Origin: a virus
IMG/VR virus record: IMGVR_UViG_3300031992_000092
Coordinates: 1 to 64,000 of that record
DNA: 64,000 bases
Direction: 5' to 3' (one strand)
Shown here: positions 304 through 47,054 of the stretch, piece after piece
Layout of the letters: every line of letters starts with the position of its first letter
How positions within the stretch are numbered: position 1 is the stretch's first letter
Notes under the pieces: generated by a model
Seen by the model: the letters and a program-made list of their open reading frames with translations, nothing else
The model's database searches: none
Told to the model about the DNA's origin: nothing
Translations under genes and position numbers: made by a program

Positions 304-3300
304 GTGTCAATTTTGAATCAAAGGGTAAGCATTCATAATCACACTTATTTTAGTAATCTTCGCCTACTTGATGCTTTATCGTCACCAGAGGCGTTGATTG
401 ACAAAGCAATTGAATTAGGTCTTGCAGGAATCGGAATTAGTGACCATGAATCTTTATCAAGTCATGTTAGAGTAAATAAATATGCTCAAAAAATTAAAGA
501 AGATTATCCAGATTTTAAAGTAATTCTAGGTAATGAAATTTATTTAACTAAAACTAGAGATTCAGGACAAAAATATTATCACTTTCTTTTAGCTGCTAAA
601 GATGAAATTGGTCATAAAACTATGCGGGAATTATCAAGTATTGCTTGGTTAAATAGTTATTTTGATAGAGGGTTACAAAGAGTTCCTACACTTTATGATG
701 AATTAAAAGAAATTGTTTTAAAATATGGCAAAGGTCATCTTATTGCTAGTTCAGCATGTATAGGTTCAAATCTTGGACAAAATATCTTAAAAATGCGAGA
801 AGCAGATATTATTGGAGATATTACTTCTCGTAAAGAAGCACATGATGATATTGTTAATCATGTATTATTTTGTCAAGACTTATTTGGAGATGATTTTTAT
901 TTTGAAATTGCTCCAGCATTATATGAAGAACAAATTTATGTTAATCAAAAAACTTATGAATTAAGTAAAATATTTGGAACTAAAGTAACAGTTCAAGATG
1001 ATAGTCACAGAATAACTCAAGAAGATTATATTGCTCATAAAGCTCTTCTTAATAGTAAACAAGGAGAGCGAGAAGATATTGATAGTTTTTATCAATATAC
1101 TTATCTTCAAAGTTATGAAGATATTAGAAAACATTTAGCTCCAACCAATTTAGATTGTGATGAACTGTTTGCTAATAGTATGGAAATTTATAATAAAGTA
1201 GAAGAATATTCTTTACTTCATAATCAGAAAGTAGTTCAAGTAGCAGTACAAGATTTTCCTAAAAAAGAAAAAACTGAATTAGATAAAGAAAAATATTCTG
1301 TTTTAAATTCTTTATATAATAGTGATAATATTCAAGAAAGAAATTGGGTTAATCAATGTATTAATAAACTTAAAGAAAAAAATATTTTTAATGATTTATA
1401 TTTAACAGAATTAGAGTATGAAGCAGATATTCAAAAAGTTGTTGGAGAAAAATTAGGAACTTGTTTATTTGCTTATCCTCTTTTTCTTCAACACTATATT
1501 GATTTATTTTGGGAGTGCGGAAGTCCTGTTGGAGTCGCTAGAGGATCGGGCGCAGCTGGTCTTAACCACTATCTTCTTGGTATTACTCAGTTAGATCCCC
1601 TTAAAGAAGGTTTTAAATATTGGCGATTTCTTAATAAAGAGCGCCTAGAGCTACCAGATATAGATATAGATACGGCACCAGATCGAAAACAAGCGGTCTT
1701 TAGTAAAATAAGAGAAGAACGAGGTCCACTTGGTTTAGTTCAAATTTGTACATTTGGTACTCTAAGTAGTCGAGCATCTGTACAAAGTGCTTGTAGGGGT
1801 TATAGATCAGCTGAATATCCAAATGGAATTGATGTAGATGAAGCTCAATATTTAACTTCTCTTATTGGTAGTGAAAGAGGTTTTGTATGGAGTATCCATG
1901 ATACTGTTTATGGTAATCCAGATAAAAATAGAAAACCTGTTAAAAATTTTGTTAATGCTGTTAGTAAATATTCAGGTTTATTAGATATTATTCTTAAACT
2001 TGAAGGTTGTATATCTCATAGAGGTATTCATGCAAGTGGAGTTCTCTTTCTTGATAAAGGTCATGAGTATGATATTAATGCATTAATGATGGCTCCTGAT
2101 GGATCAATAACAACACAATATGACCTTCACGATGCAGAGTCAACTGGAAATGTTAAGTATGACTTCCTTTACACAGATGTTGAAAGCAAAATAGCTCAAT
2201 GTCTACAACTTTTACAAGAACATGGTAAAATTGAAAAAGATTTAACTTTACGTGAAGCTTATAATAAATATTTACACCCAGATGTTCTTCCAATGGAAGA
2301 AGATAAGCTTTGGGATGCAATTGATAAAGCAAATATTCCTAGTCTTTTTCAATTAACTTCTATGGTTGGTTCTCAAACAGTTAAAAAATTAAGACCTAGA
2401 AATATTAAAACATTAAATGATGTTAATGGTATTATGCGTCTTATGGCTGATGATAGTGGTGAGTCTCCAACAGATAGATATGCAAGACTTCAAAATAATC
2501 CTCAACAATGGGAAGATGAAATGAATTATTATAATCTTACCCAAGAGGAAAAGAATGTTATTAGAGAATATGTCAATAATGGAGTTTTAATTGATCAAGA
2601 GACTCTAATGAGAATTCTTATGGATGAAAGAGTTTGTTCATTTTCTCTTAAGGAATCTAATGCAGCTCGTAAAATCGTAGCTAAAAAACAAATGAATCAA
2701 ATTGAAAAACTACATCAACAAATTCTTAATAAGGCAACAAGTGAAGCGATGGGAAAATATCTATGGTTCCTCCTAGCTCCGTCCATGGGCTATAGTTTTT
2801 CATCCATTCATGGAACAAGTTACAGTTATATTGCCGTTCAATGTGCATATCTTGCCACATATTTTCCATCTATTTATTGGAATACTGCTTGTGTACGAGT
2901 AGATGCGGGATTAGGATTAGATGATACAACCGCATATGAAAAAATTGCTAGAGCATTAGGAAATATCAAAGAACAAGGTATTGGTATTTCAACAATTGAT
3001 ATTAATAAATCTGGGATGTCTTTTGAGCCAGATGAAAAAAACAATACAATTATTTATGGATTAAAAGCACTTAATGGAGTAGGTGGAGAAATTACTCAAC
3101 AAATTATTGATAATAGACCTTATACCTCTGTTGATAATTTTAAAGAAAAAGTTAAAGTAAATAAAACTGTAATGATATCTTTAATTAAATCTGGTGCTTT
3201 TGATGAATTTGGTCCAAGAGACAAGATAATGAAAGATTATTTATATATCACGTGCGGGCCAAAGAAAAGAATTACTCTTCAAAATTTTAAAGGTTTAATG

Positions 3301-4128
3301 GATAGGAACCTTATCCCGCAAGAATTTGAATTTCAAAAAAGATTATTTGTTTTTAATAAAGCATTAAAAGCAAATTGTAAAATTGGTGATATGTATGGTA
3401 TAAACTTTAATTATTATGATTTTTATGAAGAGTTTTTTGATACATCATTACTTGAACCTCTTGGTCAAGGTTTAGGAATTCCTCAAAAAACTTGGGATAA
3501 ACTTTATAAAAATGGAATGGATCCTGTAAGAGATTATTTTAAAGCAAATCAACAAGAAATTTTAGATTTATTTAATAATACTCTTTTACAAGAAGAATGG
3601 GATAAGTATGCTCAAGGAACTCTTTCTACATGGGAAATGGATTCTTTATCTTTTTATTCTCATGAACATGAATTAAGTCATATTGACAATTCTAGATATA
3701 ATATAGTAAACTATAATAGTCTTAAAAGAGAACCTGAAATTGAATATATGTTTAAAAGAAATGGACATGATATTCCTATTTATAAAACTTTTAGAATTGC
3801 TGGAACTGTAATTGCTAAAAATAGCACTAAATCAATTGTAACTATTTTAACAACAGATAATAATGTTGTAGATATTAAGTTTACAAGAGATTATTTTGCA
3901 AAATATAATAAAAGAATTAGTGAAATTGGTTTAGATGGGAAAAAACATATCATAGAAAAAGGATTCTTTGATAAAGGAACATTAGTAATTATTAATGGTT
4001 TTAGACGTGGAGATATGTTTGTTTCTAAAAAATATTCAAGAACAAAAAGTCATCAATTATATAAAATTATTAAAATTAATCAAGATGGAAGTCTTGAGAT
4101 AACAAATAATAGAGCAGGAGAAGAGTAA
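304..4128 (+). CDS. dnaE: DNA polymerase III alpha subunit (DnaE-type) with N-terminal PHP domain
   Basis: Continuous 1274-codon ORF. PHP motif HNHTYFS...GISDHESL is present. Polymerase core motif GSPVGVARGSGAAGLNHYLLGITQLDPL...LPDIDID matches the DnaE active-site region. Start may be GTG at 304 or TTG at 313, which lies 6 nt after AAAGGTG. Confidence 0.85.
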   Translation: MSILNQRVSIHNHTYFSNLRLLDALSSPEALIDKAIELGLAGIGISDHESLSSHVRVNKYAQKIKEDYPDFKVILGNEIYLTKTRDSGQKYYHFLLAAKDEIGHKTMRELSSIAWLNSYFDRGLQRVPTLYDELKEIVLKYGKGHLIASSACIGSNLGQNILKMREADIIGDITSRKEAHDDIVNHVLFCQDLFGDDFYFEIAPALYEEQIYVNQKTYELSKIFGTKVTVQDDSHRITQEDYIAHKALLNSKQGEREDIDSFYQYTYLQSYEDIRKHLAPTNLDCDELFANSMEIYNKVEEYSLLHNQKVVQVAVQDFPKKEKTELDKEKYSVLNSLYNSDNIQERNWVNQCINKLKEKNIFNDLYLTELEYEADIQKVVGEKLGTCLFAYPLFLQHYIDLFWECGSPVGVARGSGAAGLNHYLLGITQLDPLKEGFKYWRFLNKERLELPDIDIDTAPDRKQAVFSKIREERGPLGLVQICTFGTLSSRASVQSACRGYRSAEYPNGIDVDEAQYLTSLIGSERGFVWSIHDTVYGNPDKNRKPVKNFVNAVSKYSGLLDIILKLEGCISHRGIHASGVLFLDKGHEYDINALMMAPDGSITTQYDLHDAESTGNVKYDFLYTDVESKIAQCLQLLQEHGKIEKDLTLREAYNKYLHPDVLPMEEDKLWDAIDKANIPSLFQLTSMVGSQTVKKLRPRNIKTLNDVNGIMRLMADDSGESPTDRYARLQNNPQQWEDEMNYYNLTQEEKNVIREYVNNGVLIDQETLMRILMDERVCSFSLKESNAARKIVAKKQMNQIEKLHQQILNKATSEAMGKYLWFLLAPSMGYSFSSIHGTSYSYIAVQCAYLATYFPSIYWNTACVRVDAGLGLDDTTAYEKIARALGNIKEQGIGISTIDINKSGMSFEPDEKNNTIIYGLKALNGVGGEITQQIIDNRPYTSVDNFKEKVKVNKTVMISLIKSGAFDEFGPRDKIMKDYLYITCGPKKRITLQNFKGLMDRNLIPQEFEFQKRLFVFNKALKANCKIGDMYGINFNYYDFYEEFFDTSLLEPLGQGLGIPQKTWDKLYKNGMDPVRDYFKANQQEILDLFNNTLLQEEWDKYAQGTLSTWEMDSLSFYSHEHELSHIDNSRYNIVNYNSLKREPEIEYMFKRNGHDIPIYKTFRIAGTVIAKNSTKSIVTILTTDNNVVDIKFTRDYFAKYNKRISEIGLDGKKHIIEKGFFDKGTLVIINGFRRGDMFVSKKYSRTKSHQLYKIIKINQDGSLEITNNRAGEE

Positions 4129-4155
4129 AAATATTCTTCTCCTTTTGGAGATAAA

Positions 4156-4470
4156 ATGAATGAATATTGATTTGTACATGAGCCTAAACCTGAATGGGTG
4201 CGGGAATTGCAAGAACAAGGAATTTTAACTGGCCCTGAATATGCTGCTGTAACTATAGTATATACTTTTTATACAGGAGAACATAAAGATTATCTTTATG
4301 ATGGAGATGCTTTAATTAAAACTACAGAAGGTATTATTGCTCCAATTTCTTATCAGTGGATAGACAGAGCTAAAAGAAAAAATCCAGATATGAAATTATA
4401 TTCACCAGTTGAAGGACAAATGGAAGAAATTCTTGCATCTATTTATTCCAATTTGGGCAAAAATAAATAA
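4156..4470 (+). CDS. hypothetical protein (104 aa)
   Basis: ATG at 4156 after GGAGATAAA RBS. In frame with track ORF 4198..4470 if TGA at 4168 is read as Trp (MNEYWFVHEPKPEWVRELQ...). Confidence 0.45.
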
Positions 4471-4532
4471 ATTGTAAATTTTTAATTATATTATAAATAA
4501 GTGAGCACAAAATCTAGTATAGGGAGGAATAG

Positions 4533-4736
4533 ATGATTACACTTTATAGTACAGGTTGTCCTCGTTGTAAAGTTTTAGAGCAAAAACTTCAACAAAAAAA
4601 TATTGATTTTAATATAGAATCAGATATGCAAACTATTATTGATATGGGTTTTAGAGCAGCTCCTATTCTTAAAGTAGATGAAAACTTTTATGATTTTGGA
4701 GGAGCTATTAAGTGGGTAAATTCATATGAAGATTAA
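4533..4736 (+). CDS. nrdH: NrdH-like glutaredoxin-like redoxin (CPRC active site)
   Basis: 67 aa. MITLYSTGCPRCKVLEQ has a CxxC thioredoxin-fold motif. RBS GGGAGGAAT. Lies immediately upstream of nrdD and overlaps its start. Confidence 0.7.
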   Translation: MITLYSTGCPRCKVLEQKLQQKNIDFNIESDMQTIIDMGFRAAPILKVDENFYDFGGAIKWVNSYED

Positions 4737-6690
4737 TATGAAATTAAACCGCAATTTTACAACTCAATATAATAAATTGCAAGGTGAATTTGGAACAGAA
4801 ATTGCAGAATTAAATGGTTTTGGAGATGAGCAACTTTCTTATACGGATTTTATTTCTAATTTTATAGATAAACAAACAGTAGCAGATGCTTCTATTGATA
4901 GTAATTCAAATGTTAGTCATAAAGACATTGTAACTTTAGAAAGAGAAATGCCTAAACCTCATTCTAAGCTTTTAGCTTTTAATAAAATTTATTATGAAAT
5001 TCAAAAGAAATATGGGTTTAAAACAGCTAATGAGTGGTTGCGGGCAGAGTGGATAGGTCAGCTTTATATGCACGACGCTCCATCATCAACATTTAGACAC
5101 TATTGTTTTGCTTATGACTTAAAAGATTTAGCAGAAAGAGGGTTATACTTCTTTCCTGAAAGAAATGCTAAACCAGCAGAGCATTATACAACTTTTATTG
5201 ATTTTGTAAAAGAGTTTGTTAATTATACTTGTAATCGATCTTCAGGTGCAGTAGGGTTGCCAAATCTTCTTCCATATATGTTTTACTTCTGGAAAAAAGA
5301 TATAAATGACGATTATCTAGGCATACGAACTTCGGGCAATGAACGATACTATGCTGATCAGGGATTCCAACGATTTATTTACGCGGTAAACCAAAACATC
5401 ATGAGAGATGGTTCACAATCAGCTTTCACAAATACATCAATTTTTGATCGACCATATTTTGAAGCTCTTTTTGGTGGATCAACATTTCCTGATGGAACCT
5501 TTATGATTGATTATGAAGAAGAAATAATTGAATTTCAAAAATGGTATATGGAAGTTATGTCTGAAATTCGATCAACTAATATGTTAACATTCCCAGTAAA
5601 CACAATATCTCTTCTTCGTAAAGAAGGAAAATATGATTTAAACACTCTTGATGGTTTTGTTGATCAAAATTTTGCAGAGTGGGCTATTAAACATAATATG
5701 AAATGGTCAGATTCAAATATTTTTCAAGATACATCTGTTAATAGTTTATCAAATTGTTGTCGATTAAAAAGTGATATTGCTGAGCTTGGCTATTTTAATA
5801 GCGTCGGGGGATCAGCACTTAAAGTCGGATCTGTTAAAGTATCGACAATAAATCTTGCTCGTTTAGCATTAGATACAGATTCAGAAGAAGAATATTTACA
5901 AGAACTTGAATATAGATTAATTTTAAATCTTAAAGCTCTTGATTGTATTCGCCATATAATTCAAAGAAATGTTGACAAGGGTTTGCTTCCTAATTTTTCA
6001 TATGGCTTAGTTGATTTCCCGCATCTTTATAATACAATTGGCTTCCTTGGTGTTTATGAAACAATGAAAAAATTTGGATACACTAAAGTAGATACATTAG
6101 GTAATACTTATTATACTGATAAAGCTTCTTTGTTCGGTCAGAAAATTTTTGAAACTATTCGTGAAGTATCTAATCAATTTATTAAAGATAATAATTTAGA
6201 TTATAAGATTAATTGTGAACAAATTCCTGGTGAAAATGCAGCAGATAAATTGATGAAAAAAGATAAATTCTTTTATCCAAATGCTAATATTTATGATTTA
6301 CCATTATATGGTAATCAATTTATTCCTTTAGGAATTCAAACTACTGGACAAGAAAGAGTTAGAATTCAGGCGCAATTTGATGCTTTCTGTAATGGAGGAT
6401 CAATACTCCATTATAATATTGATGCACCTTTTACAAGTTACGAAAAAGCTTTATATATGACTAATTATATTGCTCAAAAAGGTGTTACATATTTTGCATT
6501 TAATACTCGAATTTCTACATGTAAAGATAATCATGCATTTTATGGCAACGGGCCTTGTCCAGTATGTGGTAAACCAAAAGACGCAGAATTTACTAGAATT
6601 GTCGGTTTCTACACAAAAATTAACAGTTGGAGCCAGACTCGCAAAGATGAATTTAAACTTCGTAAATGGGATAACATCAATGATAATTAA
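4726..6690 (+). CDS. nrdD: anaerobic ribonucleoside-triphosphate reductase (class III RNR, NrdD)
   Basis: 654 aa. C-terminal Zn-ribbon CPVCG and a glycyl-radical-like motif (TRIVGFY). Overall length and architecture are typical of NrdD. Confidence 0.85.
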   Translation: MKINMKLNRNFTTQYNKLQGEFGTEIAELNGFGDEQLSYTDFISNFIDKQTVADASIDSNSNVSHKDIVTLEREMPKPHSKLLAFNKIYYEIQKKYGFKTANEWLRAEWIGQLYMHDAPSSTFRHYCFAYDLKDLAERGLYFFPERNAKPAEHYTTFIDFVKEFVNYTCNRSSGAVGLPNLLPYMFYFWKKDINDDYLGIRTSGNERYYADQGFQRFIYAVNQNIMRDGSQSAFTNTSIFDRPYFEALFGGSTFPDGTFMIDYEEEIIEFQKWYMEVMSEIRSTNMLTFPVNTISLLRKEGKYDLNTLDGFVDQNFAEWAIKHNMKWSDSNIFQDTSVNSLSNCCRLKSDIAELGYFNSVGGSALKVGSVKVSTINLARLALDTDSEEEYLQELEYRLILNLKALDCIRHIIQRNVDKGLLPNFSYGLVDFPHLYNTIGFLGVYETMKKFGYTKVDTLGNTYYTDKASLFGQKIFETIREVSNQFIKDNNLDYKINCEQIPGENAADKLMKKDKFFYPNANIYDLPLYGNQFIPLGIQTTGQERVRIQAQFDAFCNGGSILHYNIDAPFTSYEKALYMTNYIAQKGVTYFAFNTRISTCKDNHAFYGNGPCPVCGKPKDAEFTRIVGFYTKINSWSQTRKDEFKLRKWDNINDN

Positions 6691-7144
6691 AGGTATTATT
6701 TCTGAAGATTTTATTAATTATAAAAAACCTTGTATGGTTATAGAATTTCCAGTTTGTAAAAACTTTAAATGCGGGCAAGCCCTATGTCAAAACAATCCAT
6801 TAATAAAATATCCAGATATAGAAATTAGTTATTCTCAAATTGTTAAAAAATACATGGAAAATGATATTACACAAGCTATTGTTTTTATGGGGCTAGAACC
6901 TTTTGATAGTCCGCATGATTTATTTCTTTTAATTGAAGAATTTAGAAAATATACAATGGATGATATTGTAATTTACACTGGATATTACTGGAATGAAATT
7001 TCTACATATGTAGCTATGCTAGTGGATTATAAAAATATTATTATTAAATACGGTAGATACATTCCCAATCAAACTCCACACTATGATGAAGTTTTAGGCG
7101 TAAAATTGGTAAGTGATAATCAATATGCTGCAAAGATCAGTTAG
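6680..7144 (+). CDS. nrdG: NrdG-like anaerobic RNR activating protein (divergent Cys motif)
   Basis: C-terminal half (GLEPFDSPHDLFLLIEEF...IVIYTGYYWNEI) resembles the NrdG GGDPL...IWVWTGYKLDEL region. N-terminal cysteines are spaced C-x8-C-x4-C-x4-C rather than the canonical CxxxCxxC. Start is ATG 6680 or ATG 6647. Overlaps the nrdD end. Confidence 0.6.
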   Translation: MIIKGIISEDFINYKKPCMVIEFPVCKNFKCGQALCQNNPLIKYPDIEISYSQIVKKYMENDITQAIVFMGLEPFDSPHDLFLLIEEFRKYTMDDIVIYTGYYWNEISTYVAMLVDYKNIIIKYGRYIPNQTPHYDEVLGVKLVSDNQYAAKIS

Positions 7145-7152
7145 GAATAAAT

Positions 7153-7395
7153 ATGTATTATAATAATTATTTTAACAACAACAATAATACTACTATTTTA
7201 ATTATAATTATAGCTTGTACTCTTATAGTTGGTTTAAGTTTTCTTTTATTTGCTTTTGGCTATTGGCTAATAACTTTAATAGCTGCTCAAATTTTTAATT
7301 TTATAATTCCATTTGAATGGACATATGCTTTAGGAGCTTATGCAATATTAATAATTATTAGATTATTTATGTTACCAAGTGGTCAATCTAAATAA
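7153..7395 (+). CDS. small hydrophobic membrane protein (2 predicted TM helices, poly-Asn N-terminus)
   Basis: 80 aa, strongly hydrophobic (ILIIIIACTLIVGLSFLLFAFGYWLITLIAAQIF...). It is the last gene before a strong terminator. Confidence 0.5.
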   Translation: MYYNNYFNNNNNTTILIIIIACTLIVGLSFLLFAFGYWLITLIAAQIFNFIIPFEWTYALGAYAILIIIRLFMLPSGQSK

Positions 7396-7400
7396 AAAAT

Positions 7401-7448
7401 GCCTCAACAAAAGAATAAAAAATTCTAATGTTGAGGCTTATTTTTTTT
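7401..7448 (+). terminator. rho-independent terminator (stem GCCTCAACA / TGTTGAGGC followed by T8)
   Basis: Perfect 9-bp inverted repeat at 7401-7409 and 7430-7438, followed by a T-run at 7440-7448. Confidence 0.6.
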
Positions 7449-7476
7449 GACATTTTATTTAATAATATAGTATAAT
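7447..7476 (+). promoter_or_regulatory. sigma70-type promoter: -35 TTGACA (7447-7452), 18-bp spacer, -10 TATAAT (7471-7476)
   Basis: Consensus hexamers with canonical spacing, 24 nt upstream of the AAAGGAG RBS and ATG at 7500. Confidence 0.55.
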
Positions 7477-7499
7477 ATAATAAAACGAAAGGAGATTAT

Positions 7500-7898
7500 A
7501 TGGGAGATGTTTCTTTAGGTACTGTATATGATATTAATAAAACTGTATATAGTAATCAATCAGAAAAAATGCCAGAAGCTTTAGTTCAATCCATGTTAAA
7601 AAAAGTTTCAAGCTGGTTTAAAACTAAAGCTCTTTGTGAAGCACAATATTATATGTTTCTTTGTCGTGACCGTAATGATTATACAATTTTTAATTTTATA
7701 AAAAATAATCCAGAAAAAGGAATCAAAGAATTAATTGAATTAATTCAATCTCGTGGAATTCTTAAAGATATTGTCTATAATGAAAAATATAATTATTATG
7801 AATTTTGGATTAGTATAGATACAGAAGGATTTAGACCAGAAATGTATATGTATATTCTTTTTCCATGTAATGAATTTGTAATCGAGATTGGAGATTAA
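7500..7898 (+). CDS. hypothetical protein (132 aa)
   Basis: ORF with AAAGGAG RBS. No recognisable motif. Confidence 0.5.
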   Translation: MGDVSLGTVYDINKTVYSNQSEKMPEALVQSMLKKVSSWFKTKALCEAQYYMFLCRDRNDYTIFNFIKNNPEKGIKELIELIQSRGILKDIVYNEKYNYYEFWISIDTEGFRPEMYMYILFPCNEFVIEIGD

Positions 7899-7900
7899 AT

Positions 7901-8161
7901 ATGGATATGATGATTGCTGCTCGTCCCGCAGCTAATATTACAATTATGATTACGCAAGAAACTCCAGAATATGATGCTCAAATGGTAGCTTCTCAAACTG
8001 TTTTTGAAAAAGATTTGGAAAAAACAATTAGAAAATATTTAAATGATTATAAAATCGAAACAATGTCTATATACGGTCCTTTAGATTATATTGAACATTT
8101 AGCTGATACTCTTGGTAAAACTTTTAATCGTGAAATTACTATAATTGGAGCTGGTGTATAA
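7901..8161 (+). CDS. hypothetical protein (86 aa)
   Basis: ORF tightly packed after the previous gene. Confidence 0.4.
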   Translation: MDMMIAARPAANITIMITQETPEYDAQMVASQTVFEKDLEKTIRKYLNDYKIETMSIYGPLDYIEHLADTLGKTFNREITIIGAGV

Positions 8162-8442
8162 TGATTAAATATCTTCTTAAAACAACTGAAGAATATCGTC
8201 TTGAAACTGTAGAAGATGTAAAAACTTTTCATAAAAAACTTCAACAAGATGCTATAAATCAAGGATATACGCTAAGCTCTTTTGGATATACACAAAAGTC
8301 AACAACTGCTCGTGGAGAAATTATTGATGAATGGTGTGTTGTAAAAGTTATAAAAATATTCCAAAAAGATAAAGAACCAGAAAATGCACTTAATAAAATT
8401 ACTTATGAAACTTTTAATAGAGAGGAGTTTAATGGAGATTAA
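8161..8442 (+). CDS. hypothetical protein (93 aa)
   Basis: ORF with ATGA overlap to the previous gene. Confidence 0.4.
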   Translation: MIKYLLKTTEEYRLETVEDVKTFHKKLQQDAINQGYTLSSFGYTQKSTTARGEIIDEWCVVKVIKIFQKDKEPENALNKITYETFNREEFNGD

Positions 8443-8854
8443 AATAAAATATGAACATGATGATGTCCCTCGATTAAATAAAATTGTTCAAGGAGATTGA
8501 ATTGATTTAACTTTAGATGAAGATATTCAATTAGATAAAGGGCAATCAGGACTATTTTCTTTAGGAGTGTGTATTCAATTACCAAAAGGATATGAAGCAA
8601 TTTTAGCTCCAAGAAGTTCAACATTTAAACGTTATCATTTACTTCAAACCAACTCAATTGGTGTTATTGATAATTCTTATTGTGGAAATAATGATATCTG
8701 GAAAGTTAGTTTTTATGCCACCGAAACTACTTTTGTTCCAAGAGGAACAAGAATTTGTCAATTTAGAATAATTAAAAATCAACCTGAAATTAATTTTATA
8801 GAAGTTTCATCCCTTAATAATCAAGATAGAAATGGTTTTGGTTCAACAGGATAA
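8432..8854 (+). CDS. dut: dUTP pyrophosphatase (dUTPase)
   Basis: With TGA read as Trp at 8496-8498 (GDWIDL) the ORF extends upstream to ATG 8432. Motifs ILAPRSS, GVIDNSYCG...IW and RNGFGSTG are trimeric dUTPase motifs. Confidence 0.75.
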
Positions 8855-9333
8855 TGATTTTATCTTTAGATCAAGCATTAGTCACAACAGGTTGAGCAAT
8901 TTTTGATGAAAATAAATTAATAGCTTATGACAGTTTTACTATAAATGGAAAAGATTCTATTGAAAAAAGATTAGGATTTATTTTTCAAAGATTAATAGAA
9001 TTATATAATAAATATGAGTTTGATTATTTAGTATTTGAAGATATTCAACAGCAACAAAATCCAAGTACATATAAAAAACTTGCATATGTTCAAGCGATTA
9101 TTTTACTTTGATGTTTTTATAATCAAATTAATTTTACAGTATTAAGTCCTTCTCAATGAAGAAAAATATTAGGTGGAAATTTTGGAAGAAAAAGAGAAGA
9201 ACAAAAACAAAAAGCTATTAATTTAGTAAAACAATATTATAATATAAATGTTGATTCAGATATTGCGGATGCAATATGTATTGGAAAAGCCTATTTAGAT
9301 AGTCATAAACAATTAGGATTCGGGGTGATTTAA
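8854..9333 (+). CDS. ruvC: RuvC-like Holliday junction resolvase (phage type)
   Basis: Needs three TGA=Trp codons. N-terminal MILSLDQALVTTGWAIFDEN is the RuvC catalytic Asp/Gly motif. The protein ends at ...SDIADAICIGKAY, the typical C-terminal catalytic Asp region. Not in the track because of the in-frame TGAs. Confidence 0.75.
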
Positions 9334-9334
9334 A

Positions 9335-10270
9335 TTGTCTCTTTTTATTGTGGCAATTATTATAGCATTAGTCCTATTATTCTTTGCAGGCTATTGTAGA
9401 AAAACTAAAGATAATAAATATGATAATTATTCAAAAGCTACAGGACCTCTTATTATAGCAGCAATTATAGTAGCTTTAACAGGTACATTTTTATCTTGCG
9501 TTTATACTCAAGATGTAGGTGAAGTTGTTATTCTTCGTAATCTTGGAGGTCAATTAGCTGGAACAACTGAAGAAGCAGGTTTTCATTTTAAAGCTCCTTG
9601 GCAAGATACTATTGATTATGATATTCGTAACAATATTATTAATCTTTATCGAGATGATGAATATTCCTATGATAATGGAACAGCTCATGGAGCAGAAGTA
9701 ACAGTTTATGATAAATCAGGCGCTCAAGCAAATGTAGATGTTCAAGTAATTTATTCCTTAGACCCAGATGCAGCAATTGATCTTTATACTAAATACCAAG
9801 AACAAGAAAACTTTATTCAAATTTCCGCAGTAAATAATGTGCGGGATGCTGCAAGAAATGTATCAGGACAATTTACTACAATTGAAATGTTAAATGCTCG
9901 TGAAAACTATGCTAAAGCAATTTATGATAAACTTTCAGCAGATTGGGATAAAATAGGATTACATGTCGAAGAGGTCAACGTACAGGACATCAGATACAAT
10001 CAGGAAATTGTTGATGCTTATAATGCTGCTCAAAAAACAGAAATTTCCAAAGTTGAAGCATTAAATCAACAAGAAACCGAAAAAGTTAAAATGGATACTG
10101 AAGTCATGAAAGCTCAAAAAGAAGCAGAAGCTAATAAAATTAGAAGTGATTCTCTAACTCCTGAAATTCTTCAACAAGAATATATTGAAGCTCTTAAAAA
10201 TGGTAACGCTATTTATGTAGTTCCTGAAGGTTCTACTCCAATAGTCAATCTAGATAAGAAAGCAGAATAA
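9335..10270 (+). CDS. SPFH/band-7 (HflK/C-, prohibitin-like) membrane protein
   Basis: N-terminal TM segments, then GEVVILRNLGGQLAGTTEEAGFHFKAPWQDTIDYDIR, which is typical of an SPFH domain start, and a coiled-coil tail. Confidence 0.6.
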   Translation: MSLFIVAIIIALVLLFFAGYCRKTKDNKYDNYSKATGPLIIAAIIVALTGTFLSCVYTQDVGEVVILRNLGGQLAGTTEEAGFHFKAPWQDTIDYDIRNNIINLYRDDEYSYDNGTAHGAEVTVYDKSGAQANVDVQVIYSLDPDAAIDLYTKYQEQENFIQISAVNNVRDAARNVSGQFTTIEMLNARENYAKAIYDKLSADWDKIGLHVEEVNVQDIRYNQEIVDAYNAAQKTEISKVEALNQQETEKVKMDTEVMKAQKEAEANKIRSDSLTPEILQQEYIEALKNGNAIYVVPEGSTPIVNLDKKAE

Positions 10271-10272
10271 AA

Positions 10273-10980
10273 TTGAAATTTTTAAATATTCTTTTTATTG
10301 CAATTCTAAGTTTAAGTATTTTAGGATGTAATAAACCACAAACCCAAGAGAAGAAAGATGAAGAAGTAATAACTGTGCGGGACGAGGAAGCACCTCGTGA
10401 TGGAAGTCAAGCCGGTTCTAATGCAGTCGATATCCCGCACTTCCTCGCCACTTTAGATAATGAAAGATTTACTTATTCTTATTCACCTATTGGATATGAT
10501 AATATTGATATTGAAATGACTAAAGATTTAAATTGTATTCAACAAATTACAAATTGTTTTGGATATAAGTTTGATATACAAAAATTTTATGATGATTATT
10601 TTGATAGCATGAATCTTCATACTGATGTAACTCCAGTTCAAGGAAGTTTTGGACCTTCTGGATGTGTAGAATTTACAAAAACATATTATTCAGATAATGA
10701 TATTCCAATAAGTGTAGAAGAAATTTCTGGTATTGATTTTGAAACTTTTACAAATATTGTTAATCATAATTGGCCTATTATGGTATGGTATACATTAGAT
10801 GATAGTCAATTTGGTGGAGAAATACAATATTGGCCTTTCTATTATCCAATGATTGCTACTAAAGTAGATGAAGAAAATGTTTATTTGTTTGATGCAATTA
10901 ATGGTGAAAAAGTAGAATCTATTTCTGAATTTCAAAGAATTTGGGAGAAATGCGGAAATTATTGTTTAGTTTTCTTTTAA
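10273..10980 (+). CDS. lipoprotein (signal peptide plus LGC lipobox), function unknown
   Basis: MKFLNILFIAILSLSILGCNK is a lipoprotein signal with a Cys lipobox. It is the last gene of the plus-strand block. Confidence 0.6.
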   Translation: MKFLNILFIAILSLSILGCNKPQTQEKKDEEVITVRDEEAPRDGSQAGSNAVDIPHFLATLDNERFTYSYSPIGYDNIDIEMTKDLNCIQQITNCFGYKFDIQKFYDDYFDSMNLHTDVTPVQGSFGPSGCVEFTKTYYSDNDIPISVEEISGIDFETFTNIVNHNWPIMVWYTLDDSQFGGEIQYWPFYYPMIATKVDEENVYLFDAINGEKVESISEFQRIWEKCGNYCLVFF

Positions 10981-10992
10981 AAATAGACATAA

Positions 10993-11031
10993 AAAAAGAG
11001 GGGTACTCAATTAAGAGTACCCCTTATTTTT
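10993..11031. terminator. bidirectional rho-independent terminator (A-run, GGGGTACTC/GAGTACCCC hairpin, T-run)
   Basis: Inverted repeat at 11000-11008 and 11016-11024, flanked by A7 upstream and T8 downstream. It sits between the convergent lipoprotein and endolysin genes. Confidence 0.6.
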
Positions 11032-12591
11032 TTACCATTTATTATCATTTAAAGAGCATTGTAAGGCTTTAACAGATTCTCTACCAAAATATCCATCTAC
11101 ATCAATATCGTAACCTTTATTAACTAACCATTGCTGGAGAGCTCTTGAGGTCCCAGGGCCTCATTGACCATCAACTTCCGCACCAACTTTACTTTGAATA
11201 GCTTCAACTAATTGAGAACCAGTTCCGCTATCATATTCAACATTATACATTCCTCAATGGTAATCTTTATTTCCAAGCCATTGACCGCTAATAACACCAT
11301 CTTCATAAGTACCTAATGTGTGCTGTAAATCAATAATAGTATTTCATCCACCAATACCATCAATTTCAAGTTTTCCACCATCGCGATTATTTTTTGGATC
11401 AGTTGAAACATCTGGTGTGAAATTTCCACTATCAGAATTACTATAATGAGGTCTAATAACATAGGCTACGTTACCCATATTACGATATTTTTCTTGTACG
11501 GCATTACCAACATTACCTTCAATTGTTGGGAATCCAGAGCCATCAAAACTTCCTGTTGCAAATCCAATATGGTCAGTAGCTCCATCTCAATCCCAATTAA
11601 AGATAACAATGTCTCCATACTGTACATTATATTTATCTACAGCATAATTTTTTGCGCCATTATTTAGAGCTAAATCTGTATTATAAGTTGGGAAACCTTT
11701 AACTACAACTCCTGCTTGTTCTAAGCATCAACTTACAAACATGCAGCACCATCAAATTTCAACAGAAGGTCCAGCAAGCCAATCTTCATCTCACTTATCA
11801 GCCAATCAACGACCATATTTAGAACCTGGTTCAGGATCATTAGGAGCATAATATCCTAATTCACCATAAGCAACGTCAATAACACTTTTAGCTGTTCCAC
11901 TCATTTGTTTACTTTCTTCTTCTTTTTTTTCCTCTATTGGTTCATCAGTTTGAATAGTTTGTCCAGCAGCTATTCTTGCGGGATAGTCGATACAACACCA
12001 ATCGCAATCGTGATAACCACTAACATCATCAAATACTATATGACCATCAGATAATCTAATTCCGCCTTGCTGTCACATTCCAATATCTCCAGCTTCAGTT
12101 GGTCAAGAAGCTTTTCATCAAGCAATTCAATTAGCATAGTCACGAAGTTCATCTGCATACATATTGTTTAATCATGCATTTCCACCAGTATAAAGTCCTG
12201 CATAATATCCTCTATTACGGAGAGTATCGCAAAAAACTTTAATAACATCAGTTAAAGTACGTGCTGATAACTGGAATTGTCTTGGATCTTCAACATCTGT
12301 GTAACAAGGTAAATCAAATTTATGTCCATCAAGTAAATCTGCAAAGTGATTAGCATCTTTTCTTGAATTTTCTGTATCTGTAGTAACTGTATAATAATAT
12401 GCTCCAATATGAAGTCCAGCAGCTACAGCTTTTTTATAATTATTTTCAAATTGTCCGTCTTTATAACGTCCTAAATTTGTTTCATTTCCACCAGCTTTAA
12501 TAATAACGCCTCAAAGTCCTCTCTGACGTTTTCAAGCTGCTAAATCAATATCCCCATCTCAATGAGAGATATCAAGAACAAGTTCTTTCAT
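11032..12591 (-). CDS. endolysin: N-terminal GH25 muramidase plus C-terminal domain (519 aa)
   Basis: Table-4 translation from ATG (rc of 12589-12591, RBS AGAGGTG) gives MKELVLDISHWDGDIDLAAWKRQRGLWGVIIKAGGNETNL..., the GH25 (Cpl-1-like) lysozyme N-terminus. The ORF is continuous only when the several TGAs are read as Trp. It ends ...KALQCSLNDNKW*. Confidence 0.75.
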
Positions 12592-12612
12592 TTTCCGCAC
12601 CTCTTTTCTATA

Positions 12613-12650: not shown

Positions 12651-12941
12651 TTATTCTTTTAGATGAGCAGGCTGCTTTTTTAATTCATGCATTAGTATGT
12701 CTGCTTGAAGAGCGGGTTGAGTAAAACTGTTATTCTTCCATCAAGCGATAATAGAAGCTACAACAACAGCAACACCTGAAGCAATTTCATAAATATTGTT
12801 TTCATCAATATCAATAGGAGTTCACCCAAGTAAAGCGCAAAAAGCATTAACTAATGCAATAAATAGAACAATGGTTCTAGCAATAGTCCCAGGTTCAATT
12901 GAAAGCAATCCGTCTAAATTAATTGTTTTTGCTTCAGCCAT
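12651..12941 (-). CDS. holin (96 aa, single strongly hydrophobic core)
   Basis: Table-4 translation MAEAKTINLDGLLSIEPGTIARTIVLFIALVNAFCALLGWTPIDIDENNIYEIASGVAVVVASIIAWWKNNSF.... It is small, has TM segments, and lies immediately upstream of the endolysin. Confidence 0.55.
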
Positions 12942-13785: not shown

Positions 13786-14418
13786 CTAATTACCTTGTAT
13801 AATTTCTTCTATTTCATCATCTGTAACAGCTCTAAATCCAAAGTCCTCTAATGTTTGATTCCCTGTAAGTTCAACTCCATTAATAGAAGGTTTGTTTGTA
13901 ACATAAAGATAATCTGTTACACCTTCGAGTTCAACTTCTTCTAATCATTTTGTAATATCTTCTACACTTTGATTCATAACTATTGCAGCTTGTGAAAACA
14001 AATTATAATCATCAGAAGCAATAAATTTATCTAAGTCTATTGGGTCTGCGGAAATAGTAACTTGAAAATCATCTGTTCCAATTAAACTATTATTATCAAC
14101 TTTTTCAATTTTACAAATAATATGTCCTTCTTGAATCATTTTTGATGGTCAAGCTATTTCTCAGACTGGATTAATTTTTAAAGTTTTATCTCCAACTTCA
14201 ATACAATTAAATACATTATAGCCTTGAATATCTAATTCTTGATGATGCCATTTTAAATAAATTTTAGTAGAAGAAGTAAAAACAGAAGCAGCTTCTTGAG
14301 AAAAAATTACTTTTAATTTTTTTCCATTAATATCATTGCCACTAAATATCATATCTTCTATTGGTTGATAAAAAGATTTTATTTCTAAAATACAAGAAGT
14401 TAATGATAACATATTCAC
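13786..14418 (-). CDS. hypothetical protein (210 aa)
   Basis: Track ORFs 14161..14418 and 13945..14139 are in one frame, joined through TGA=Trp. They continue to TAG at 13786-13788. Confidence 0.45.
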
Positions 14419-33507: not shown

Positions 33508-35546
33508 TAGAACTCCATTCCATCTGCATATTCATAATCTGGAATATAAAAAGTGACAGTTTCACCATTAATAGTAATACTTCCCAATTCAATTCCACTC
33601 TCATAAACTGAAGTTGCAGATACCATATCCTTATTGACGGAAACTCGCCCATCTCCTGTAATAATTAAATTATCTCCAATTTTGATACCACCAATTACAT
33701 CTGCTGTTGCTATTGGCATAGAACCAATAGTACCATCAGGATTAATAACAGTAGTACCAATAATATCATCAATCATACTATTAGTAGTTTCTTTTACATC
33801 AAGAACACCTGCTCCACTAATAGTAAAGCTATTTTCACTAGCAATTATACCACCTAAAACACTATTAGAAGCAGGATTCAAATGAACAGTATAACTACCA
33901 TCTTGTTCTAATTCTTGTCTAAAAGTAGAAGAAAGTGCGGGTAATGTTAAACTTCTATTTCTAACACTTTTCTCATGTCCGTATTGATCAAAAATAATAT
34001 AAGGGAAGATTAATTGACCACCAAGCATTAAATTAGCTGCATCTTGATATCCAGCAGCCGTCATAACACCAGAACCACTATCATGTGTAATGGTCATTCC
34101 TAAATCTTCATCATAAATAATTTTTAATCCACTATCTTCTAATATATTTAAAGCTAATACATTATTTTCAGTTAAATAAATAGGACTAATATCTGAATCT
34201 ACTCTTACACCACCTAATGCAGATTTAGTGGCTGCTGGTAATACATAAGCAGTTCTAACAGACAAAGTTCCTAAAGCATCTACAACAATTGTTCTACCAT
34301 CAACCATAACAGAACCAAGAGTTGTAGTAGATGCTATTTTAGTATTAGCGGAAATATGACCTTCATCATCTATTGTAATTGTATCATTATCAATTTTAAC
34401 TCCACCTAAACGATCATGAGTCGCCATTGTAATTGAAAAATCTGAAAAAGTAGTAGATAAAACTCCATTTTCATCTATTTGAAGAGTTTCACCATCAACT
34501 ATAATACCACCTAGAGTTGATTCTGTAGCCATAGGTAACTCATAGCTAAAAACACTACTAATAGTACCAGTAGCATCAATAGTAATAGTTTCATTATCTA
34601 CCATAACTCCACCTAAAGTATTATTAGATGCCATAGGTAATTCATATGAGCTATCTATTGTAGAAATAACTCCATTTTCAATAACAATAGAAGTATTATC
34701 AGGTCTAACTAAACCATAAGAAGAATCATCTGCAAATGGTACAGAAATTACTCCACGGTCATTAATTAAAATAGTTTGACCATCTGGAATAACTCCACCA
34801 AGAATTGATAAAGTAGCAATAGGTAATGTATAACTTTGCGGGAAATCAACAGACAAATAACCATCCTCATCAATTGTTACATTGTCCCCTGCCCGCACAA
34901 TACCTAAAGTATTATCTGTAGCAACGGGTAAAGCTAAATCTGTAAAATCGACATGGATAAAACCATATTCATCCATTTTAATAGATTCATTATCAATTCT
35001 TACACCACCTAAAACAGATGATGAGGCTCTTGGTAATTCATAAATAGTATCTGTAGCAGATAAGACACCATCTTGAGTAATTTGAAGATTTTCACCAACT
35101 TTAATTCCTCCTAAAGTATTAGCTGTAGCAGGATTTAAAGTATATTGTTTTGCGCTTAAAACTCCATTTTCTACAAAGATAGTAGTATTATCTGGTCTTG
35201 AAATACCTTTAGTATAAGCAGTAGCATCTCCAATAGAAGAAATATCTGGTGTAGTTCCACTTTCAGAATCTCCACCTTCTCCATTAGTAATATCTGAAAT
35301 TTCTTCATTAGTAGCAATAGTATCATTACCTGTACCACTGCCACCCCCACTACCACCAACTACTGTTAATACTCCTTGATTAACAGTAATTGTTTCATTA
35401 TCTGGCATTACTAGTCCCGCAACGGAAGCTGTAGCAAGTGCTAATTTAGCATCAATTAAACGCATATTTTCATTAAAGATACTAATATCAGCATCTTCAT
35501 TATAATCTGGTAATGTTAGTCCCAAATTGGGTGTATAAGTTGCCAT
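33507..35546 (-). CDS. tail fibre protein with repetitive beta-solenoid-like segments (679 aa)
   Basis: Continuous ORF with GGAGG RBS. N-terminus MATYTPNLGLTLPDYNEDADISIFNEN. Contains about 12 copies of a degenerate T-LGGV-VDNETITID--G-IS repeat. Confidence 0.65.
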   Translation of the reverse strand: MATYTPNLGLTLPDYNEDADISIFNENMRLIDAKLALATASVAGLVMPDNETITVNQGVLTVVGGSGGGSGTGNDTIATNEEISDITNGEGGDSESGTTPDISSIGDATAYTKGISRPDNTTIFVENGVLSAKQYTLNPATANTLGGIKVGENLQITQDGVLSATDTIYELPRASSSVLGGVRIDNESIKMDEYGFIHVDFTDLALPVATDNTLGIVRAGDNVTIDEDGYLSVDFPQSYTLPIATLSILGGVIPDGQTILINDRGVISVPFADDSSYGLVRPDNTSIVIENGVISTIDSSYELPMASNNTLGGVMVDNETITIDATGTISSVFSYELPMATESTLGGIIVDGETLQIDENGVLSTTFSDFSITMATHDRLGGVKIDNDTITIDDEGHISANTKIASTTTLGSVMVDGRTIVVDALGTLSVRTAYVLPAATKSALGGVRVDSDISPIYLTENNVLALNILEDSGLKIIYDEDLGMTITHDSGSGVMTAAGYQDAANLMLGGQLIFPYIIFDQYGHEKSVRNRSLTLPALSSTFRQELEQDGSYTVHLNPASNSVLGGIIASENSFTISGAGVLDVKETTNSMIDDIIGTTVINPDGTIGSMPIATADVIGGIKIGDNLIITGDGRVSVNKDMVSATSVYESGIELGSITINGETVTFYIPDYEYADGMEF

Positions 35547-37802: not shown

Positions 37803-37816
37803 AAATTAATAAAAAA

Positions 37817-37846: not shown

Positions 37847-37858
37847 ATCTACAAAGTT

Positions 37859-39517: not shown

Positions 39518-39537
39518 AGCCTCCCTCTTTCTTTATT

Positions 39538-39750
39538 TTATTCTACAGATTCTTCTTCCTCATTTTCTTCAGGCTCTTGGACTGTAATAGCTGTAATAAA
39601 TTCTTGGAAGATATCATCTTTAAGTTCAACTAAATAACTATTAACAGCATCTTCCATCATATAAGCTGGAACCTGATTTTGTTGTCTAATTGAAGAAAGA
39701 ACTCTTTTAACCATTTTTTGAACTTCTAATCTTAATTGTTGTTCTACCAT
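39538..39750 (-). CDS. small acidic protein (70 aa)
   Basis: Intact ORF with AAGGAGG RBS and an acidic C-terminal tail (EPEENEEEESVE). Confidence 0.5.
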   Translation of the reverse strand: MVEQQLRLEVQKMVKRVLSSIRQQNQVPAYMMEDAVNSYLVELKDDIFQEFITAITVQEPEENEEEESVE

Positions 39751-39822
39751 GAGAACCTCCTTGTATCTCTAAAAACCTTATTTATATTATACCCATTTTT
39801 TAAAAAATTTATACACAAATTT

Positions 39823-41589: not shown

Positions 41590-41600
41590 TAGATTACCTC

Positions 41601-44600: not shown

Positions 44601-47054
44601 TCTTGAAGTAGATTCTCCCAAGAGTCTCCAAGAAATATTATCAGTATTTTTAATATCTGCAAGTCTTCCCTCATAATATTTTTCAAACTGTAACATTAAA
44701 ATATTTTCTGAGAGTGCGGGACGTCCTATTACATTTCATGATGCAACTTCATTACCACCATCATTAATAGTCGTTTCAATTGATAATAAACTATCATCAA
44801 GAGTTTCTCGTCTACTAACGATTTTTCCCGCGTAACTAGTACCATTACTTCCATTTTCTCCAATTTTTAAGAAAGTAAAAGTAGTAGAATTAGAAAATAC
44901 TTGGTCTTGATAAGTTAATTGTACTGTAATTTGATTATTAGTTGCAGACACATCATAATAATCTTTTATTTTTAAAGGTAAAATATCTTCTTGATAATAT
45001 TTATATCCTTCATTTCCCGCAAAATTTTCTAAATTATATCCTTCAAAATCAAATAAAGTATTTGTTATAGGTACTATTCATTTATAATCATAATCTGCTA
45101 AATTAATTAATTCTCCTTCAGGAGAATAAAATAAAACAGATAAAGGATTAATTATCTGCGGCTCTTGGAATCTACTACTAGTAGGAGAAATACCATCTTC
45201 ATTATATTGAAATAATTGATTTCCATTTATAATTTCAATAGTATATCCACGCTCTTGAACATCTTCTCCATTAGTTAATCTTAAAGAAGCTGCTCCTAAA
45301 TAATAATCTATATTATTTATCTTTTGAGTTACAGTACATCCAATTTCTACATCTCCAGTTGTTGAAACTAAAGAAGTAGTAAAAAAGTTTTTATTAATAG
45401 TGGTATCATTATAAGCTTCAATTTCTCTTTTTAAAGATTGTGAAAGAGAAGTGTCTACTATTTGACTAGATATTCTTGCTTGATATTCTGCATCTACAGC
45501 GTTTTGATATTCTGTTTCTAATTGCTCTTTAGTTTTAACATATGTTACCGCTGTCTCTCCATTTGGAGAATAAATAGTTCTAGACCATCAGAATGAAAAA
45601 TCATTATTATTATAGTTATTAATAAAACTATTATCAACACCATCATGTCCATCTATTAAGCATTTAATAGTTATTGTACCATTAGTATAATCAAATTTTA
45701 ATCCTCTATTACTTTCTAATGTAACAGGATATTTCCGCATAAGATTATAAACTTTAAATGTTTCTGATAATACTACTTGTGGAGAATTATCTGTAGTAGT
45801 ATTTGCAATAGTTACTATTAATTTATATTCATTCTCATAAGCTAAACATTGAGAATCATAAAGAGTTATTTTTTTAGTTGTTGTATCTAATTTCTTTCAT
45901 TTAGCACCAGCTAAATAAGAATAATATTCAGAACTAGAATTTATTCTATCATCTCTTAAAAATCAATTATAACTGGTTTGAGTTTCATCAGAAATATCTG
46001 TATTTTGTTTATATAAAACAATAGCTTGAAATCTTAAACTTTGTCCACTATAAGAAAAATTTGTTCCATCTAGGGGAGAAATAATTAAATTATAATTATT
46101 ATCTGATATACTTGCGGGATTAGCACTAAAAAGTTCTAAATTTGAAATGAAGATGTCATCATCATCTATTCCCACAACACTTGTAGATTCAAAATCTTTA
46201 CTATAAATTTCAACACTTTTTAAATATAAATAATTTGTTGAATCTATTGGATAAATCATATATTGATTTGAAGGTATTTCAAATCTAAATGGATTACCAA
46301 TCATTTGATCTGAATCTATAGTAAAACTTCTATAAATAATATCTTCTTGATTATAATATTCAATTAAACCAGAAGATGTTTCTTGTTGTTGAATTTTAGC
46401 ACCATCTTTTTTAAATGCTAAAGTAACACTATATCCATATTTACCAAATTGGGTTAATTTATGTGCATAAGATAATGCTGTGCGGAAAGTGGCTCCTAAT
46501 CAAATAAAGTTAGATTGTTCTAAACTAGCTCTAAAACCATTTTCATCAAAATTCATTTGCGGGATAGACCCTATTAAATTTACCAATTCAGTATTACTAT
46601 TTTCATATTGCTCTATTTTATAATATAAATATTTACCATCATGAGCTTTATATGAATTTAATCCTTGTGGAAAAGATACAGCTCCATTACTTAAACAATT
46701 ACCACTTGTCTTTTTATATTTATATTTTTCAATATCTAAAAGTGTTAATAATTCTTTATTTGAAGTTGTAGTAGCTTTTCCTGTAATTAATTTTGTATTA
46801 GTAAAATCTCCTAAAGGAACAAGTACATATACTAATTCATCTAAGGCATAACTTATATCTAAATTCTGGGCATAAGCAGTAAAAAATCCATCCTGATATT
46901 GAACTTTATATTCACCAGTCATAGAATTTGTACAACCTATAATAGAACAAATAATAGTTTTATCTAATTGTAATTCAGAAACTCGTTCTTTAATTAGATA
47001 ATCTGTTGCCTCTAATAAAGATTGTTGAATAGTTTGATTATCAACTCCTGCCAT
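41601..47054 (-). CDS. distal-tail / tail-associated (Dit/Tal-like) baseplate protein(s); about 1,817 codons in one frame, possibly more than one gene
   Basis: Start ATG after AAGGTGGTGA RBS at 47054. Nine track pieces are all in the same frame. Junctions checked at 46500, 45963 and 43805 are TGA. Terminal TAG at 41601. Its position immediately after the tape-measure gene suggests the role. Confidence 0.4.

Follow-up and report, generated by a model that had tools for sequence, protein, structure and literature searches.

The window analysed here, the 64,000 nucleotides at positions 1 to 64,000 of IMG/VR virus record IMGVR_UViG_3300031992_000092, is divided by strand into genes that write tryptophan (Trp) almost exclusively as TGG and genes dense in in-frame TGA. 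It makes up about 43% of a siphovirus-type phage of about 149 kb that uses genetic code 4 (TGA = Trp). The genome size is derived from overlaps of near-identical IMG/VR contigs that extend the window on both sides, the relatives concerned being IMGVR_UViG_3300028591_004246, IMGVR_UViG_3300028591_000460, IMGVR_UViG_3300031992_002114 and IMGVR_UViG_3300032038_006501; exact-protein contig look-ups with DnaE and the tube protein gave no match. We consider it highly probable that this is a code-4 phage with TGA-free early genes, in which a UGA suppressor enables the late genes in a standard-code, walled Gram-positive host.

The window has a G+C content (GC) of 29%. Under the bacterial code (code 11) it splits into fragments, and stop-to-stop open reading frames (ORFs) of ≥300 nt cover 68.5% of it; coverage is 96.1% with TGA as sense and 72.3% with TAG as sense. 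With TGA as sense, two gene sets emerge, comprising 14 genes on the + strand (77-10980) and 23 on the - strand (11032-63777), and the gene stops are 29 TAA and 8 TAG, with no others. Window proteins were translated with TGA as X and compared by alignment with related loci that are not identical; the residues opposite X were most often W (598), Y (98) and L (96). Pfam matches read through TGA codons in the endolysin (GH25), the holin (Holin_SPP1), RuvC and dUTPase. On these alignments, TGA is read as Trp in this phage; code 25 (TGA = Gly) was rejected, Gly not being among the 12 commonest residues at TGA positions.

Counted over the code-4 models of all 37 window genes, in-frame Trp codons amount to 5 TGA and 36 TGG on the + strand and to 189 TGA and 56 TGG on the - strand (Fisher p = 1.4e-15). 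TGA accounts for about 77% of late-gene Trp codons, above the half supposed in an original prediction made from the letters of this stretch. At that share (0.77), the probability of finding no TGA among the 20 Trp codons of dnaE and nrdD is 1.4e-13, which bears out the view that chance is a poor explanation. The recount also agrees that dnaE, nrdD, nrdH, nrdG and the SPFH and lipoprotein genes use TGG only: dnaE has the 12 Trp codons claimed, nrdD has eight instead of nine, and neither contains a TGA. TGA is required on the same strand in dut (one) and ruvC (three), as had been noticed, and additionally in orf104, which had not been listed. The late genes are as dense in TGA as described, among them the endolysin, the holin and ORFs of 3924 and 3011 aa (counts below).

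This depletion is confined to the reading frame. The G-ending share of AAR, GAR, CAR, TTR and AGR codons is 9.5% on the + strand and 10.8% on the - strand, and off-frame TGA occurs per 1,000 codons at 9.1 versus 8.5 (+ versus -) in frame 1 and at 60.9 versus 59.3 in frame 2; the in-frame values are 1.4 versus 11.0. The Trp content of the two sets is alike (1.16% and 1.42%). Because G-ending share and off-frame TGA are equal across strands, the depletion is gene-specific and not compositional, and composition or strand bias was rejected as its cause. The early genes resist a mutational drive of about 90% toward A at the third position of Trp codons.

The + strand features and the terminator that bounds them are as follows, with codon counts given as TGA/TGG.

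77-244, + strand: 55-aa ORF.
245-274, + strand: sigma-70 promoter, TTGACA-18-TATAAT, TG-extended, 12/12 consensus, 30 nt upstream of dnaE.
304-4128, + strand: dnaE, Pol III alpha, with PHP, NTPase, finger and HhH domains; 0/12.
4156-4470, + strand: orf104, function not assigned; 1/2, the TGA at codon 5.
4533-4736, + strand: nrdH-like glutaredoxin with CPRC motif and a weak Pfam Thioredoxin_3/Glutaredoxin match; 0/1.
4726-6690, + strand: nrdD, anaerobic ribonucleotide reductase (PF13597, E = 1e-84); 0/8.
6680-7144, + strand: nrdG activase; 0/1.
7153-7395, + strand: 80-aa membrane protein; 0/2.
7447-7476, + strand: second sigma-70 promoter, 12/12 consensus, heading the orf132-dut-ruvC-SPFH-lipoprotein block.
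7500-8442, + strand: orf132 (7500-7898), o86 (7901-8161) and o93 (8161-8442); together 0/3.
8432-8854, + strand: dut (dUTPase); 1/1.
8854-9333, + strand: ruvC-type resolvase, within the sigma-70-headed operon; 3/0.
9335-10270, + strand: SPFH/Band-7 protein; 0/2.
10273-10980, + strand: putative lipoprotein, signal peptide ending ...LSILGC; 0/4.
10998-11025, no strand assigned: bidirectional intrinsic terminator, meeting point of the + (early) and - (late) units.

The TGA of orf104 lies within the gene, where a GGAG ribosome-binding site precedes the ATG and no other in-frame start exists past the TGA. In nrdG the true start is the ATG at 6680, and the TGA upstream falls outside the gene. Only two promoters in the 64-kb window match the sigma-70 consensus at 12 of 12 positions (245-274 and 7447-7476); both are intergenic and directly precede TGA-poor + strand blocks. 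The 53-kb late region has no 12/12 match and one 11/12 match, at 56907-56880. Perfect sigma-70 promoters placed in this way would fit early transcription of the TGA-poor blocks by host polymerase.

The - strand genes are the following.

11032-12600, - strand: endolysin with GH25, CHAP and peptidoglycan-binding domains; 17/7, the GH25 match spanning 9 TGA.
12651-12941, - strand: SPP1-type holin (PF04688, E = 1.5e-24); 2/1.
12968-13768, - strand: 266-aa Ala/Val/Thr-rich protein, GC 0.41; 0/2.
13786-14418, - strand: 210-aa late ORF; 3/1.
14496-26270, - strand: 3924-aa giant ORF, tail-fibre or adhesin candidate by position; 62/11.
26283-47054, - strand: eight tail/baseplate-region ORFs, functions by position only, including those of 1186 aa (15/2), 1217 aa (14/3), 679 aa (0/0), 747 aa (9/3), 552 aa (5/1), 588 aa (12/4) and 1817 aa (17/7).
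39538-39750, - strand: 70-aa ORF in the tail/baseplate region, without a Trp codon.
47179-56214, - strand: 3011-aa ORF in tape-measure position, downstream of the tube gene and two small ORFs; 17/3.
56371-58542, - strand: 158-aa (0/2) and 538-aa (7/2) ORFs, between the tube gene and the 3011-aa ORF.
58613-59800, - strand: major virion structural (tube-like) protein with an Ig-like C-terminus, GC 0.385; 0/2.
59908-63777, - strand: six head-tail connector region ORFs; 1/0, 2/0, 4/4, 0/1, 1/0 and 1/0.

When TGA-free fragments of these large late ORFs were searched against PHROG, almost no functional names came back, so 'tape measure', 'baseplate' and 'receptor-binding protein' are names by position only. 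The 3924-aa and 3011-aa ORFs are nearly without recognisable families. The 679-aa late protein (33507-35546), which has no Trp codon at all, contains many repeats resembling 'A(T/S)xxxLGG(V/I)xxD' and matches several PHROGs without assigned function.

The region upstream of the window was read from a relative, contig IMGVR_UViG_3300028591_004246, which is 97.6% identical to the window phage over 14 kb (loci of relatives are cited below by L numbers). The roughly 20 kb upstream of dnaE encode on the + strand GyrB, GyrA, an ATP-dependent ligase, an AAA_24 ATPase and primase-like and RecJ-like proteins, all TGA-free. The + strand ORFs over this stretch hold 9 TGA versus about 71 TGG, with 5 of the TGA in thyX and 3 in a SLOG-domain gene. 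In all, replication genes free of TGA span more than 30 kb.

About 29 kb upstream of dnaE and the window start, on the same strand, is a 25-gene tRNA array with one tRNA(UCA) and one tRNA-Trp(CCA). The tRNA(UCA) lies at L138:68-163 (= L141:5558-5653) on the same contig, and an identical copy is present in a second relative, L162. The suppressor that the original prediction proposed to look for in the rest of the phage thus occurs in the 97.6%-identical relative, in L162 and in the more distant L082. Also within the array (L141:4465-11561) are tRNAs with C34, namely Lys CUU, Glu CUC, Gln CUG, Ser CGA and Thr CGU; they read G-ending codons, although such codons make up only about 10% in the phage. 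The array also encloses an HNH endonuclease gene (L141:4723-5244).

The partition is conserved in relatives. Between those 95-98% identical, TGA and TGG are exchanged at 11 of about 101 late Trp codons and at none of 39 early ones, and all 12 TGG codons of dnaE are kept in the 97.6%-identical relative. L082, whose DnaE is 56% identical, has a tRNA(UCA) and recoded genes on its converging - strand, and its Trp codons are 0 TGA and 19 TGG in DnaE and include 3 TGA in RuvC. In L089, a TAG-recoded relative with code 15, RuvC has three in-frame TAG codons and DnaE has none. The RuvC-type resolvase (window 8854-9333; L082:20214-20708; L089:21983-22450) carries three recoded stops in each lineage, at differing positions. 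Recoding of RuvC that recurs by gene and not by site suggests, as far as sequence can tell, recurrent translational gating of the resolvase. The wider set of relatives (L003-L089, 90-175 kb, found via the tube protein and DnaE) includes code 11, code 4 and code 15 members, these codes being crude guides from a coding-density classifier that ignores ORFs running off locus ends. Such a mix in one clade would fit repeated, recent code switches.

The host appears to be walled. A lysin combining GH25, CHAP and peptidoglycan-binding domains, an SPP1-type holin and an LPXTG protein indicate a probable sortase-bearing Gram-positive host and not a Mollicute. The LPXTG protein is pilin-like (L138:5953-7959 in the relative, + strand, just downstream of the tRNA array), has GramPos_pilinBB and SpaA domains and an LPXTG anchor, and contains 4 TGA and 3 TGG; it may modify the host surface and is a possible clue to the host. 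A scan of bacterial genomes with the endolysin gave matches of 43-46% only, in metagenome-assembled genomes (MAGs; a 'Bacillales' MAG and an Olsenella MAG), and relatives of the endolysin occur in MAGs from water-deer ileum and in a Ruminococcus RUG bin. As the MAG matches may be binned phage DNA, we make no host call.

The early/late partition of a stop-codon-recoded phage, to which the original prediction had likened the window, fits the alignment of TGA with Trp, the code-4 coding density, the relative's tRNA(UCA), the promoters and the precedent of the Agate phages. In such a phage the genes needed first would be the two + strand units behind perfect host-type sigma-70 promoters, comprising dnaE, nrdH/D/G and several small genes, together with the gyrase, ligase, primase and RecJ-like genes seen upstream in the relative. 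Selection would remove in-frame TGA from these genes against the mutational bias toward A-ending codons (about 90%), leaving them translatable by unmodified host ribosomes with release factor 2 (RF2). As the suppressor accumulated from the tRNA array, UGA would come to be read as Trp, and full-length holin, endolysin, tail, baseplate and connector proteins would be made only after that. The same delay would hold for genes embedded in early operons, that is, ruvC, dut, orf104 and, upstream, thyX; because their TGA codons lie inside an early-type, sigma-70-headed transcript, dut and ruvC would be gated at translation. A host that before infection reads TGA as stop, as this one presumably does, is the only setting in which so thorough a purge of TGA from early genes would make sense.

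Several points weigh against this explanation. The partition is leaky: 3 of the 14 + strand genes (orf104, dut and ruvC) need TGA within sigma-70 operons, and 6 of the 23 - strand genes are TGA-free, including the tube protein (58613-59800) and ORF 12968-13768. These two are late yet TGA-free, as is a likely capsid gene in a relative (L001:4900-5946). Early and late are themselves assigned from gene function and promoters, and the host's code is read back from the purge and not from an assigned host. The window yielded no tRNA or other RNA family by ARAGORN at default settings or at Rfam gathering thresholds, relaxed ARAGORN settings gave noise only (122-240 'genes'), and the gap between dnaE and nrdD, where phAss-1 has its suppressors, holds nrdH and no tRNA; the suppressor of this exact genome would therefore be the one seen in its relatives. 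The release-factor half of the proposed search came back empty: the ORF scan, which covered about 115 kb of a composite genome of about 149 kb, showed no release-factor gene (release factor 1, RF1, included) and none for tryptophanyl-tRNA synthetase (TrpRS). Accessory code-change genes of these kinds occur in some clades and are not obligatory. Finally, as the early strand carries the suppressor array, a delay could come only from suppressor accumulation or from competition with RF2.

The same machinery could also produce the partition passively. AT pressure would turn TGG into TGA wherever translation follows the suppressor, purifying selection would clear TGA only from genes translated before it, and there would be no lysis timer; the difference from the preferred explanation lies only in whether the block is adaptive. 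The late TGA share of 77% nears the A-ending share of about 90% in the other two-fold purine-ending codons, TGA and TGG flip both ways between close relatives, and the RuvC TGA sites vary between lineages, all of which favour drift. Against it, each of three lineages has three recoded stops in RuvC, two different stop codons being involved, despite the early-type operon of this gene, and Borges et al. (10.1101/2021.08.26.457843) report statistically preferential recoding of lysis-cassette genes. Neither point is decisive, and permissive drift is a real possibility, if short of a probable one; the block may have regulatory value or may merely be tolerated. A further alternative is that TGG marks expression and not earliness, TGA being avoided in genes of high or reliable output since suppression competes with RF2. 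This would account for the late, TGA-free tube protein, ORF 12968-13768 and likely capsid gene. The first two have GC of 0.39-0.41 versus about 0.27 and, in the control codon pairs, 35% and 34% G-ending codons versus about 10% elsewhere, so that these late genes look like codon adaptation of abundant virion proteins, a secondary effect. That effect applies neither to dnaE nor to nrdD, which show no general G-ending shift (9% and 15.5%) yet use TGG throughout, and the most abundant products are unlikely to be replication enzymes. Translation efficiency can explain only the late-gene exceptions, and is improbable as the cause of the partition.

The original prediction had also offered recent acquisition of the polymerase/ribonucleotide reductase module from a standard-code donor, with TGA not yet accumulated. 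Such a source would yield 100% TGG, and an AT-rich donor would be compatible with the GC content and codon bias; however, TGA-free and TGA-using genes are interleaved within the same operons, and a further stretch of replisome genes, more than 20 kb long, is TGA-free as well. The nearest cultured relatives are the same for DnaE (37%) and the tube protein (35%), Enterococcus EF1-like phages in both cases, and the split is found again in L082, whose DnaE is 56% identical, and, with TAG, in L089. A foreign module is thus very unlikely. Equally hard to credit is a host that itself uses code 4, with the TGG preference of some genes a reflection of its codon usage. Mollicutes and their phages do typically combine low GC (29% here) with code 4, but the wall-targeting endolysin, the SPP1-type holin and the LPXTG-anchored protein imply peptidoglycan and sortase, and a code-4 host gives no reason for near-total avoidance of TGA in replisome genes. 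Where phage and host share code 4 or 25, TGA occurs in about 90% of phage genes (Borges et al., 10.1101/2021.08.26.457843), versus 3 of 14 early genes here. A phage of a code-4 Mollicutes host is very unlikely on these grounds.

The suppressor tRNA, although it lies outside the window, is a lead of larger potential value than the codon partition. The tRNA(UCA) at L138:68-163 is 96 nt long, with a 7-bp acceptor stem, a 5-bp T stem, a 4-bp D stem and the anticodon loop CUUCAAA, and it has the tRNA-Trp features A1-U72, G73 and the D loop AAUGGUA. Inserted in its variable region is a fifth arm with a stem of 5 bp, whose 7-nt loop, GUCCAAA, has the anticodon-loop sequence of tRNA-Trp(CCA). Against the Rfam tRNA model the molecule scores 56.2 bits, the hairpin being handled as inserted sequence within the variable region. 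Across the tRNA(UCA)s of the lineage, the variable-arm stem is 5-7 bp and the 7-nt loop reads [G/C]UCCAAA; that of L082 (L082:23262-23358, - strand) has the same five-arm design. ARAGORN labels the molecule tRNA-SeC, which was rejected, as it has a 7/5 branch and a 4-bp D stem in place of an 8/5, 8/4 or 9/3 branch and a 6-bp D stem. Its structure and the alignment of TGA to Trp positions rule out Ser, Sec or allo-tRNA identity more generally. Type II tRNAs, allo-tRNAs and selC*-type opal suppressors (Mukai et al., PMC5389517) share the long variable arm and G73; compared with allo-tRNA and selC*, the present tRNA has a canonical 7/5 branch, a tRNA-Trp-like D arm and A1-U72, and serves Trp positions, not Ser, Cys or Sec.

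A scan of IMG/VR for UCA suppressors (loci numbered within L142-L259) with the variable region left unconstrained (GGTCTTCAAAACC-N5-35-GGGTTCGA) returned 93 loci with 75 unique variable regions, 58 of them long; UCCA occurs in 38 of the 58 and YUGA in 2. The stems covary strongly: over the 41 unique tRNAs that contain UCCAAA, pairing at each of stem pairs 2-5 is 90-100%, through 4-5 different pair types, and 193 of 205 stem cells are paired, versus 114 ± 5.5 in shuffles. The phAss-1 Sup(CUA) (L137:12445-12532, - strand, 88 nt) has the same scaffold with the variable-arm loop UCUGAA. A metagenome scan for CUA suppressors (L261-L380) gave at least 30 unique long variable regions, and among the matches listed 24 of 30 carry CUGA or UUGA and 2 carry UCCA. 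The association of loop motif with UCA or CUA anticodon is strong among the matches listed (Fisher p = 1.5e-13), though kinship between the tRNAs inflates the statistics. With UCCA in UCA suppressors and CUGA or UUGA (Gln) in CUA suppressors, the variable-arm loop tracks the amino acid of the recoded stop. We infer that the loop may be a decoy identity element for TrpRS or glutaminyl-tRNA synthetase, with the stop itself read by the true anticodon arm (UCA or CUA). Targeted literature searches that included the most relevant papers found no description of an amino-acid-matching variable-arm loop, which is weak evidence of novelty. We propose, tentatively and with more doubt than confidence, that five-arm suppressor tRNAs are an undescribed class that runs the code switch through a loop mimicking the anticodon loop of the inserted amino acid. 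If true, this would answer how suppressors with altered anticodons are charged by synthetases that read the anticodon and, together with the TGA-free early genes, would explain how a new codon meaning is imposed via host synthetases only; orthogonal suppressor tRNAs could then also be designed on a principle supplied by nature.

Among known systems, the phages of Mollicutes and of Absconditabacteria/Gracilibacteria (code 4/25) share in-frame TGA as a sense codon with the present phage, which stands apart by its partitioned TGA use, by the alignment of TGA with Trp instead of Gly and by a host that would be walled. TAG-recoded crAss-like and Lak phages likewise use a reassigned stop in late structural and lysis genes and the standard code in early ones; they differ in stop codon and amino acid, in their Bacteroidota hosts and in their unrelated virion and replication modules. 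Closer in gene content is the EF1-like group, which includes TAG-recoded relatives, phAss-1 and the proposed Phassvirus (PMC10607447). These have large siphovirus-type genomes (about 135-142 kb), the dnaE-nrdD-nrdG-thyX module, a large early-strand tRNA array and recoding mainly of virion genes, and the tube protein is 48% identical to its homologue in phAss-1 and 35% to that of EF1 (DnaE, 37% to EF1). Of the three Sup(CUA) genes of phAss-1, which reads TAG as Gln (code 15), two immediately precede nrdD, and EF1 uses the standard code; the present phage reads TGA as Trp, with the suppressor about 29 kb upstream of dnaE.

The nearest counterpart in strategy is the TGA-recoded 'Agate' phages of animal guts (about 127-154 kb), whose structural and lysis genes are recoded and whose replication genes are standard; Borges et al. 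(10.1101/2021.08.26.457843) propose that, through recoding, late and lysis proteins are held back until the new code is in force. Compared by description, the present phage resembles them in its code 4, its inferred size of about 149 kb, its endolysin's gut-linked MAG relatives, its standard-code replication genes, the suppressor tRNA of its lineage and relatives that, by the crude test, mix codes 11, 4 and 15. As Borges et al. already describe the partition for these phages, it is a known phenomenon in a further genome. The window is a clean, well-controlled example of it, mainly of use for correct annotation, which matters because code 11 would call the window as fragments. Two features were not found in the text of that preprint, the TGA-free abundant virion genes and the TGA gating of ruvC, dut and thyX in early operons; the latter would place single early-operon genes under a recoded stop, convergently with TGA and TAG in related lineages.

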